Sequence record: MG589383
Origin: Shigella phage phi25-307
DNA: 64,000 bases
Strand: one strand, 5' to 3'
The position numbers and the translations under genes are program-made. The stretch's first letter is position 1. Each line of letters begins with the position of its first letter. Below the pieces are notes generated by a model. The model did no database searches. It had not been told where the DNA came from and saw only the letters and a program-made list of their open reading frames with translations. Below, piece after piece: positions 53,670-54,528 of the stretch.

Positions 53670-53697
53670 AAAAAGCCCCAACCTTTCGGAAGGGGCT
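53670..53697 (-). terminator. rho-independent terminator (AGCCCC...GGGGCU + U5) closing the tRNA/small-RNA transcription unit
   Basis: same stem sequence as the terminator at 37927. Confidence 0.55.
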
Positions 53698-53745
53698 ATG
53701 CCTTGCGGCAACCTTGTCGGGGTTCCACCTGCTAAGGCAAGTGTT

Positions 53746-53896
53746 TGTACGAAACGCCGGGATTCGAACCCGGTTATTAAGCAGTTGACGCTACTCAATA
53801 TTTTTAAAAGGCCATATCTCGACCATATCCGAACGTTCCGTCAAAAACGCTACTCGGCTTACGGCAAAGATATTTCCTCGAATCGATAATTCTGTG
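53746..53896 (-). ncRNA. candidate tRNA-like small stable RNA
   Basis: ORF-poor; canonical T-arm CCGGG-TTCGAAT-CCCGG followed by CGTTTCG that can pair with GAAACG about 140 nt upstream; no cloverleaf found. Confidence 0.3.
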
Positions 53897-54008
53897 CGCC
53901 GTTTCTGCTGTGATGTAAGGGGATATTAACGAATCATAAAGATTTATTAAGACCAGTCCTTACTCAGGGAACATCAGTCCGACGACTTGCCGGTAGCGAC
54001 CCGGCTTC

Positions 54009-54353
54009 TTATTTTGGCATATCATCAATTTGTTCTCGACGCCGACGCCATAGATTAATCGCTTCATAAACACATTCTGCGTTTGGTATATGACGGCAAT
54101 AATATAATGATTCGCGTTTCTGGAACCGATGTTGTAATGGAATTTCGTTTAAAAGGTCTTTACGATCAAAGTATTCAAAACTAGTTAACCCAGAACGATT
54201 TTTAAGGAACTTCCAATGGCCAAATTCATTTTGGAAATAAACGTAATCAGCGTGTTGATATAACGAATTAATCAACCGGTCAGAAATAACTGTATCCTGT
54301 TCATTAAAATAAAACGTTAAATCATGAACTACCAGATAAATATTACCTTTCAT
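54009..54353 (-). CDS. hypothetical protein (about 114 aa)
   Basis: ATG at 54353 with RBS GAGGAAAAT; start trimmed to avoid tRNA overlap. Confidence 0.5.
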   Translation of the reverse strand: MKGNIYLVVHDLTFYFNEQDTVISDRLINSLYQHADYVYFQNEFGHWKFLKNRSGLTSFEYFDRKDLLNEIPLQHRFQKRESLYYCRHIPNAECVYEAINLWRRRREQIDDMPK

Positions 54354-54371
54354 ATTTTCCTCACTTAAAGT

Positions 54372-54448
54372 TGGTCGAGACAGAAGGATTCTAACCTTCA
54401 ACCTACGGATTAGAAGTCCGTTGCTCTATACAATTGAGCTATGCCTCG
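54372..54448 (-). tRNA. tRNA-Arg (anticodon UCU), CCA encoded
   Basis: manual fold: acceptor CGAGGCA/TGTCTCG, D-stem GCTC/GAGC, anticodon stem ACGGA/TCCGT with loop CTTCTAA, T-arm GAAGG-TTAGAAT-CCTTC. Confidence 0.8.
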
Positions 54449-54454
54449 AATATA

Positions 54455-54528
54455 TGACCCAGACCAGATTCGAACTGGTAACCTTTCCCTTATGAGGGGA
54501 CTGCTGCTAACCGTTGAGCTACAGGGCC
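54455..54528 (-). tRNA. tRNA with CAU anticodon (Ile-lysidine type or Met)
   Basis: manual fold: T-arm ACCAG-TTCGAAT-CTGGT, anticodon loop CTCATAA; acceptor has one U-U mismatch and the D-arm is atypical. Confidence 0.6.

Follow-up and report, generated by a model that had tools for sequence, protein, structure and literature searches.

A T4-type tRNA operon in Shigella phage phi25-307 with predicted orthologues of the stable RNAs rnaC and rnaD, and covariation suggestive of pairing between two rnaC hairpin loops

In phage T4, the tRNA gene cluster is followed by genes for two small stable RNAs: tRNA-Arg is succeeded by rnaD (species 2 RNA, 119 nt; AF158101 misc_RNA 71053-71171), rnaC (species 1 RNA, 139 nt; AF158101 misc_RNA 70908-71046) and, after ~280 bp, gene e.8. 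Phage RB9, also with rnaD and rnaC annotated, has tRNA-Arg, rnaD and rnaC in the same order. Transcription of the T4 tRNA cluster starts mostly at a middle promoter close upstream and stops past the species I gene (PMC2330249). RNA-seq and northern blots have documented T4 RNAC and RNAD as late, abundant RNAs (PMC9697503). Their roles are unassigned, with no function in trans found in ~50 years (PMC3014915), and few other T4 gene products still lack a function (PMC3014915, PMC9697503). Here we describe the corresponding locus of Shigella phage phi25-307 (sequence record MG589383), which we analyzed as part of a 64-kb stretch of its DNA (the window, to which all positions refer) by searches of phage collections together with Rfam, ARAGORN, RNA folding, covariance models and pattern scans.

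By identity, homology and layout, the locus, at 53670-54615 on the minus strand, is very probably the T4 tRNA operon in an RB69/Mosigvirus form. Every feature in it lies on the minus strand, a point on which an earlier reading of this DNA from its letters (the sequence-only reading) had been silent, in the order middle-promoter-like site, tRNA-Ile(CAU), tRNA-Arg(UCU), small ORF, rnaD, rnaC, trailer and terminator. Across 1.3 kb, the region shares ~95% identity with two Mosigvirus members, Escherichia phages SF and RB69; it was matched by 757 phage records, and a query with 53660-54010 (minus strand) matched 809 phage records, including T4 (92% identity) and the RB-series, in which the matched DNA carries rnaC and rnaD annotation. 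Judged by homology, this operon is already known, as an RB69 form of the T4 tRNA operon with predicted rnaC and rnaD orthologues; what we contribute is its exact map in phi25-307, the presence of rnaD, the reassignment of the CAU tRNA to Ile, the spread of rnaC in tRNA arrays, covariation in the rnaC fold and co-varying rnaC loops.

The closest described record is that of RB69 (AY303349, 74420-74941 and an unannotated gap at 73991-74419), which resembles the window in gene order, in ~95% identity, in both tRNAs and in the small ORF. RB69ORF151c lies upstream of its tRNAs and RB69ORF150c downstream, followed by the unannotated gap of ~430 bp. The RB69 record differs in that rnaC and rnaD are not annotated and in that the DNA past the terminator is unlike that of the window. 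Many related phages match this region only from ~53665 onward, indicating that the DNA just past the terminator (53400-53665) is a variable junction between phage lineages. T4 differs from the window in having eight tRNAs and segB in the upstream part of the operon, whereas the window has two tRNAs and an extra ORF there.

The sequence-only reading had singled out about 53746..53896 as a tRNA-like candidate with a T arm, acceptor-like pairing and no full cloverleaf, reminiscent of the T4 stable RNAs C and D. These parts and the likeness were borne out, whereas the ends were not: compared with the T4 annotation, they were ~10 nt too long on the 5´ side and ~2 nt too long on the 3´ side. By sequence, predicted fold and place, we assign the candidate as the orthologue of T4 rnaC, from which it is two substitutions apart (137/139 identical); both copies follow rnaD and precede the trailer and the same terminator. 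The parts of the phi25-307 copy are as follows.

53748..53886, minus strand: rnaC (species 1 RNA) orthologue
53885-53879 with 53756-53750, minus strand: acceptor-like stem of seven positions (CGAUUCG/CGUUUCG, two central U.U mismatches), from the fold
53878-53809, minus strand: H1, a long hairpin of 70 nt, from the fold
53839..53844, minus strand: loop 1, UUGACG, at the apex of H1, proposed 5´ partner
53808-53801, minus strand: A-rich linker, from the fold
53800-53775, minus strand: H2, a 10-bp hairpin, from the fold
53785..53790, minus strand: loop 2, CGUCAA, in the H2 loop, proposed 3´ partner
53773-53757, minus strand: T arm, CCGGG-UUCGAAU-CCCGG, one nt past H2 and directly followed by the 3´ acceptor strand, as in tRNA
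UA, minus strand: 3´ tail, from the T4 annotation

The predicted fold is a four-way junction formed by the acceptor-like stem, H1, the A-rich linker, H2 and the T arm, with a folding energy of -50.2 kcal/mol (z = -4.55 against shuffles). Against a covariance model (R1) built from nine aligned homologues, the window copy among them, it scored 155 bits (E = 6e-41). Together with the near-identity to T4 rnaC, these values lie far beyond chance. No cloverleaf was found at rnaC by ARAGORN or Rfam, for which the best match was tRNA-Sec at 16.6 bits compared with a gathering score of 47. Rfam at permissive thresholds returned no rnaC or rnaD family in 53400-54700, the matches being noise (the same tRNA-Sec hit, isrK on the opposite strand at 16.5 bits and snoRNA models).

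The fold (acceptor stem, T arm and two hairpins) has strong covariation support. In an alignment of 18 distinct sequences, 92% of the cells are paired and compensatory changes are found in 28/52 pairs; none of 500 shuffles matched these values, and the pairing fell to 37-48% when the partners were slid by 1-3 columns. The register of the acceptor stem is set by Yersinia phage TG1 and Pectobacterium phage PM2, both of which have Watson-Crick pairs at the two U.U positions. Across clades, the H1 arms measure 29-30 and 26-28 nt and the whole RNA 141-143 nt. These lengths are kept even though the H1 sequence is almost wholly different between the T4 type and the type found in Marfavirus, Gelderlandvirus and KLB31.

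These data bear on two simpler explanations of the segment. One is that rnaC is a decayed tRNA gene, a functionless relic of the reduced tRNA set of the RB69 lineage. The retained acceptor stem and T arm next to absent D and anticodon arms fit this idea, as do the resemblance of the T arm and 3´ acceptor strand to neighboring tRNAs (for example a tRNA-Gln in the Moonvirus contig L127, to which the rnaC model matches weakly) and the presence of two tRNAs in RB69-type phages compared with 8-10 in T4 and RB9. However, an element of 141-143 nt has been kept in at least 10 genera, with compensatory changes in more than half of its pairs, near-invariant loops and fixed arm lengths; T4, with its full tRNA set, has an almost identical element, and in T4 this element accumulates as a stable RNA (PMC9697503). 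Covariation already largely refutes decay, and we regard this explanation as very improbable. The other is that the segment encodes protein. Two ORFs overlap rnaC, one of 45 aa on the minus strand (53661-53798) and one of 63 aa on the plus strand (53698-53889), and a "hypothetical protein" is annotated beneath the match in many GenBank records. Yet the substitutions keep base pairs rather than codons, homologues differ in length by single nucleotides, H1 has been swapped for unrelated sequence of the same length, and T4 and the RB-series annotate an RNA from direct RNA work, making a coding role the least credible of the explanations considered.

Within the two hairpins, the stems vary freely and the loops are the most conserved parts. 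Loop 1, UUGACG (53844-53839), is the exact reverse complement of loop 2, CGUCAA (53790-53785), and the two change together: UUGGCG occurs with CGCCAA in five sequences of the Marfavirus clade (A-U to G-C), and UUGAUG with CAUCAA in two sequences of the Tegunavirus clade (C-G to U-A). The six positions are fully paired in all 18 aligned sequences, two of the six pairs are changed on both sides and no one-sided changes are seen, compared with 17-50% pairing in slid controls. Upon addition of four further lineages, full 6-bp complementarity was found in 21 of 22 sequences. Two points weigh against pairing of the loops: the most divergent homologue, that of PM2, retains four of the six pairs (the central GACG/CGUC), and the helix is backed by two independent compensatory events only. 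Taken together, this suggestive evidence makes a predicted kissing contact between the two rnaC loops probable. It suggests that rnaC has a defined three-dimensional architecture, in which the loops would pair either within one molecule or between two. We found no mention of loop-loop pairing in the literature searched, the early papers on species 1 RNA being outside the reach of that search.

A different contact was considered and set aside. The 3´ end of rnaD (GAAACG) could pair with the 3´ acceptor strand of rnaC (CGUUUC); we dropped this pairing because phages without rnaD have CGUUCCG at this position, which co-varies with the local 5´ strand. The GAAACG/CGUUUC complementarity may underlie the longer 5´ boundary given by the sequence-only reading.

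The end of the acceptor stem also resembles a tRNA. The base that follows the stem is U in all homologues, and past this U the sequence reads ACA in T4-like phages and in the window, UCA in TG1 and a true CCA in Marfavirus and PM2. As seen in the 3´ flanks, including 53745-53749 of the window, this tail is CCA-like with a relaxed first position. Some Kanagawavirus and Winklervirus copies (Q7622, IME523 and Kc304) have UGCAUGC or UGCAUUC in place of the T loop UUCGAAU; compensatory changes preserve the T stem despite these loops, indicating that a canonical T-loop fold is not required.

These features raise the possibility that rnaC is a functional, non-canonical tRNA that is aminoacylated and serves translation or a different aminoacyl-transfer reaction, much like tmRNA, in which the tRNA-like domain retains the acceptor stem and T arm and has no anticodon arm. 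An acceptor/T-arm minihelix with an invariant discriminator U and an NCA tail would suit charging, CCA is encoded in Marfavirus and PM2, and some pipelines annotate the element as "tRNA-OTHER" or "tRNA-Lys". Against charging, T4-type copies encode ACA in place of CCA and the mature T4 RNA is annotated to end in ..GUA, there is neither an anticodon-like 7-nt loop nor an ORF or tag-like region, and ARAGORN, which is capable of finding tmRNA, finds nothing at rnaC. We consider a charged rnaC highly unlikely.

To collect rnaC homologues, we combined stepwise searches of annotated phages with pattern scans of viral and metagenome contigs filtered by covariance model. This yielded 22 distinct homologues from Tequatrovirus, Mosigvirus, Karamvirus, Kanagawavirus, Winklervirus, Tegunavirus, Gelderlandvirus, Mosugukvirus, Moonvirus and Marfavirus and from one unclassified Straboviridae phage. 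Where the flanks were inspected, rnaC lies in or next to a tRNA array, and in most records inside it; in Karamvirus and Gelderlandvirus, it lies between tRNA-Trp and tRNA-Gly. The contig scans found homologues in ~21 viral contigs and 2 metagenome contigs, and none was found in the 185,579 bacterial and archaeal genomes scanned. On these yields, rnaC does not extend beyond T4-like phages of enterobacteria and their relatives, leaving little room to enlarge the covariation sample with these collections. A loose pattern scan of viral contigs gave 120 loci, nearly all of them chance matches, with nine being real according to the covariance model. A weak second match to the rnaC model in contig L127 proved to be the tRNA-Gln and no paralogue. 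In public records, rnaC and rnaD are unannotated or labeled "hypothetical protein" in most RB69-like and many T4-like phages, and a few records call rnaC "tRNA-OTHER" or "tRNA-Lys".

The second RNA, rnaD, was absent from the sequence-only reading, as was the 114-aa ORF at 54009-54353 that lies with it between tRNA-Arg and rnaC. The assigned rnaD copies are as follows.

~53894..54012, minus strand: rnaD (species 2 RNA) orthologue, 102 of 121 aligned columns identical to T4 rnaD
81-160 of locus L011, Klebsiella phage Kpn BM7 (Marfavirus): shorter rnaD core, under a "hypothetical protein"
789-866 of Moonvirus contig L127, minus strand: shorter rnaD core, in the tRNA region

The window copy shares with T4 rnaD the conserved blocks at the 5´ and 3´ ends and the place directly upstream of rnaC, and the central hairpin has diverged. 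T4 rnaD starts 1 nt past tRNA-Arg, whereas in the window a 345-nt ORF intervenes, so that the 5´ end would not be produced by 3´ processing of the tRNA. This makes the layout unlike that of T4 and leaves the homology unaffected. The structure in the window comprises a 5´ hairpin (CCGG-GUCGCUA-CCGG), a 7-bp closing stem near the 3´ end (GUCGUCG/CGGCG(C)AC) and a variable central hairpin, and our structural claims for rnaD go no further than these three elements. Among ten T-even-like copies, the near-invariant 5´ and 3´ blocks are AAGAARCCGGGUCGCUACCGG, AAGUCGUCGGACUGA, GUUCCCUG, AUCACAGC and GAAACGGCGCAC, and the central hairpin between the blocks occurs in three unrelated versions. In the consensus fold, the closing pair of the 5´ hairpin co-varies (A-U, G-C); across distant clades, the support for the fold is weak (-5.8 kcal/mol, with one compensatory pair, G-C to C-G, in the closing stem). 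At the 3´ end (53893-53896), the window has GCGCACA where the nine others of a 10-sequence alignment have GCGCACC, a private C-to-A change at the last position (CACA; T4 CACC).

The shorter rnaD core found in the Marfavirus and Moonvirus tRNA regions has a different 5´ part and reads AGUCGUCG..GUUCCCUG..hairpin..AUCACAGC..GGCGCA, indicating that rnaD is older than the T-even group. The core was not found in the examined stretches of several rnaC-bearing genera. Conversely, Dhakavirus VR5 (L009, 1195-1400) has tRNA-Arg, rnaD, trailer and terminator and lacks rnaC, marking rnaC as a separable module.

With both RNAs mapped, their possible functions can be weighed. One explanation is that rnaC and rnaD act in cis: as structured spacers, they would steer or safeguard maturation of the tRNA precursor, including its 3´ end, and the stable fragments would be by-products. 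In T-even and RB69-type phages, the two RNAs do come last in the operon, ahead of the terminator, rnaC copies are embedded in a tRNA polycistron, and a role in trans has escaped detection for some five decades (PMC3014915). However, in Karamvirus, Gelderlandvirus and Winklervirus, rnaC is in mid-array (for example between tRNA-Trp and tRNA-Gly) rather than at the 3´ end, VR5 keeps rnaD, trailer and terminator without rnaC, and a spacer needs neither strict loop conservation nor loop complementarity. In addition, a single-nucleotide polymorphism (SNP) in rnaD alters host-specific virulence (PMC12685909): when the T4-like phage BW1 was evolved on the semi-permissive E. coli strain ECOR34, the rnaD SNP was the sole mutation common to all lines, and virulence on ECOR34 rose from 0.17 to 0.98 (PMC12685909). 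This SNP hints at a host-dependent role for rnaD, and we consider a cis-acting spacer unlikely.

The anatomy of rnaC suggests how a trans-acting RNA could be made. The acceptor/T-arm module, in which the 7-position stem stacks on the T arm and is followed by the discriminator U and NCA tail, could be the part on which the tRNA-processing enzymes of the host act; a stable RNA of ~140 nt would then be cut out of the polycistronic precursor by RNase P (5´ end) and 3´ trimming enzymes. In place of the D and anticodon arms there would be two hairpins of fixed length, whose 6-nt loops may pair intra- or intermolecularly, and this two-hairpin body would be the functional part of rnaC. A speculative role for rnaC and rnaD, to which we give a low probability though a higher one than to the spacer, is that of a stable tRNA mimic that binds or diverts a tRNA-recognizing host factor, such as a defense nuclease or processing enzyme, in a host-conditional way. 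The fuller proposal, that rnaC is a tRNA-shaped particle with locked or dimerized loops acting as a mimic in trans, and that rnaC and rnaD are host-range determinants rather than operon leftovers, is at best as likely and is offered tentatively.

Several observations weigh against these proposals. The RNA ends given for phi25-307 are taken over from the T4 GenBank record. The likeness to tRNA is only partial: as annotated, T4 rnaC has one extra U before the drawn stem at its 5´ end and ends in ..GUA rather than CCA, rnaC has no D arm, and the T loop is not conserved in Kanagawavirus and Winklervirus. VR5 (Dhakavirus) does without rnaC, and deletions of the T4 tRNA region are viable on laboratory hosts. 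From the last two points, any function is dispensable or conditional. If true, binding or diversion of a host factor would be the first function for RNAs known since the 1970s. The occurrence of rnaC in many T4-like genera, in or near tRNA arrays, with fixed dimensions and co-varying loops, provides handles for experiments, and the adaptive rnaD SNP (PMC12685909) suggests that tests on host panels could reveal a phenotype.

Upstream of the small RNAs, ARAGORN and Rfam RF00005 (gathering score 29) gave the same two tRNA genes and no others above threshold in the 64 kb, in agreement with the sequence-only reading, which had drawn exactly these coordinates by hand. That reading had also set the pair beside the eight tRNAs of T4, a number that the T4 annotation gives for the homologous locus.

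54455..54528, minus strand: CAU-anticodon tRNA, orthologue of T4 tRNA-Ile (ARAGORN; Rfam 52.4 bits), CCA not encoded
54372..54448, minus strand: tRNA-Arg(UCU), AGA reader (ARAGORN, tct; Rfam 71.1 bits), CCA encoded

The CAU tRNA, for which no amino acid had been proposed, is identical to the T4 tRNA-Ile gene at 72/74 positions, pointing to a lysidine-type tRNA-Ile that reads AUA, of the T4 tRNA-Ile type and not a tRNA-Met. Its acceptor stem has C4-G69 and C5-G68, and its backbone is that of neither initiator nor elongator Met. The lysidine-modified tRNA-Ile2 of E. coli has these two pairs as well. According to Nolan et al., a CAU tRNA of this kind is present in all T4-like genomes that carry tRNAs; programs call it Met, yet it bears the signatures of lysidine-modified tRNA-Ile (PMC1524935). 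The tRNA-Arg backbone is shared with the tRNA-Arg of RB9 and VR5, unlike that of T4. By these assignments, the retained pair is predicted to read AUA and AGA. Counted over 63 long ORFs in the window, 14.9% of the Arg codons are AGA and 12.7% of the Ile codons are AUA. These shares are two to three times those of E. coli. The codons of both tRNAs would thus be commoner in the phage than in its host.

The remaining features of the operon are a promoter-like site, the ORF, a trailer and the terminator.

54591..54615, minus strand: MotA-box-type middle-promoter-like site, TGCTTTA-N12-TATTAT, from a pattern scan
54009..54353, minus strand: 114-aa ORF (345 nt) of the RB69ORF150c family, with a GAGGA Shine-Dalgarno sequence (phrog_3355, E = 1.9e-50)
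53698..53747, minus strand: 50-nt trailer with three small predicted hairpins, near-invariant in T4, RB9, RB69 and the window
53670..53697, minus strand: intrinsic terminator, a GAAA-tetraloop hairpin and five U, from folding and homology to the T4 terminator

The promoter-like site sits just ahead of the first tRNA, where it overlaps the stop codon of the preceding ORF. MotA-box-like motifs (TGCTTNA, 11-13 nt, TANNNT) number 14 in the window compared with 3.8 expected, with 10 of the 14 on the minus strand. No late-promoter motif (TATAAATA) was found near the operon, and over the whole window it occurs about as often as expected by chance. By homology to T4, where this has been shown, the entire unit would be transcribed as a single precursor in phi25-307. 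The ATG of the 114-aa ORF is 18 nt past the CCA of tRNA-Arg and its stop codon falls within the 5´ end of rnaD; with a ribosome-binding site a few nt past the tRNA CCA, the ORF would be translated from the tRNA precursor. Pfam gave no match for three neighboring ORFs, including this one, and PHROGs gave only families of unknown function.

The 50-nt trailer, which is also kept in VR5, a phage without rnaC, may be a processing site. The hairpin that follows, AGCCCC-UU-CC-GAAA-GG-UU-GGGGCU at 53697-53674 with the last of five U at 53670, is a homologue of the T4 terminator and is predicted to end the tRNA/small-RNA operon as an intrinsic terminator. The sequence-only reading had placed a strong terminator exactly here; the terminator is real, but "strong" overstates it, as the T4 counterpart has a perfect 10-bp stem (9 bp without the terminal A-U pair), whereas the window stem is interrupted by a 2x2 U/U internal loop and is weaker (-16.0 compared with -20.3 kcal/mol). 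Because of this internal loop, a scan for perfect stems missed the terminator. The record of another Mosigvirus, phage SA79RD, also marks a terminator at this site. A plus-strand terminator called by a simple scan is the reverse complement of the rnaD 5´ hairpin, and we regard it as an artefact. For annotation, the region should read tRNA-Ile(CAU), tRNA-Arg(UCU), rnaD, rnaC and terminator.

Compared with known systems, rnaC partly resembles canonical tRNA (RF00005), with which it shares a 7-position acceptor stem continuous with a 5-bp T stem, the 7-nt loop UUCGAAU, a discriminator base, an NCA tail and a place in tRNA arrays. It differs in lacking both the D arm and the anticodon arm, in its 139-nt length, in matching no tRNA model above threshold and in having a T loop that varies in two genera (Kanagawavirus and Winklervirus). 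The tRNA-like domain of tmRNA, YrlA and other RNAs with RNase P-processed tRNA-like ends likewise carry an acceptor/T-arm mimic on a non-tRNA body, as a handle for processing or recognition. Between rnaC and the tmRNA domain or YrlA there is no sequence or model similarity, the sole YrlA match in the region being weak (17.8 bits, E = 1.3) and located on the real tRNAs; they also differ in body and partners, and a coding tag is absent from rnaC. GOLLD and ROOL are large phage-associated RNAs of several hundred nt found near tRNA genes and reported to form multimers. In general terms, rnaC is like them in being phage-borne, in lying beside tRNA genes and in its possible RNA-RNA contacts through loops, but it is unrelated in sequence, neither family gave an Rfam match here, and for rnaC multimerization is only a possibility.

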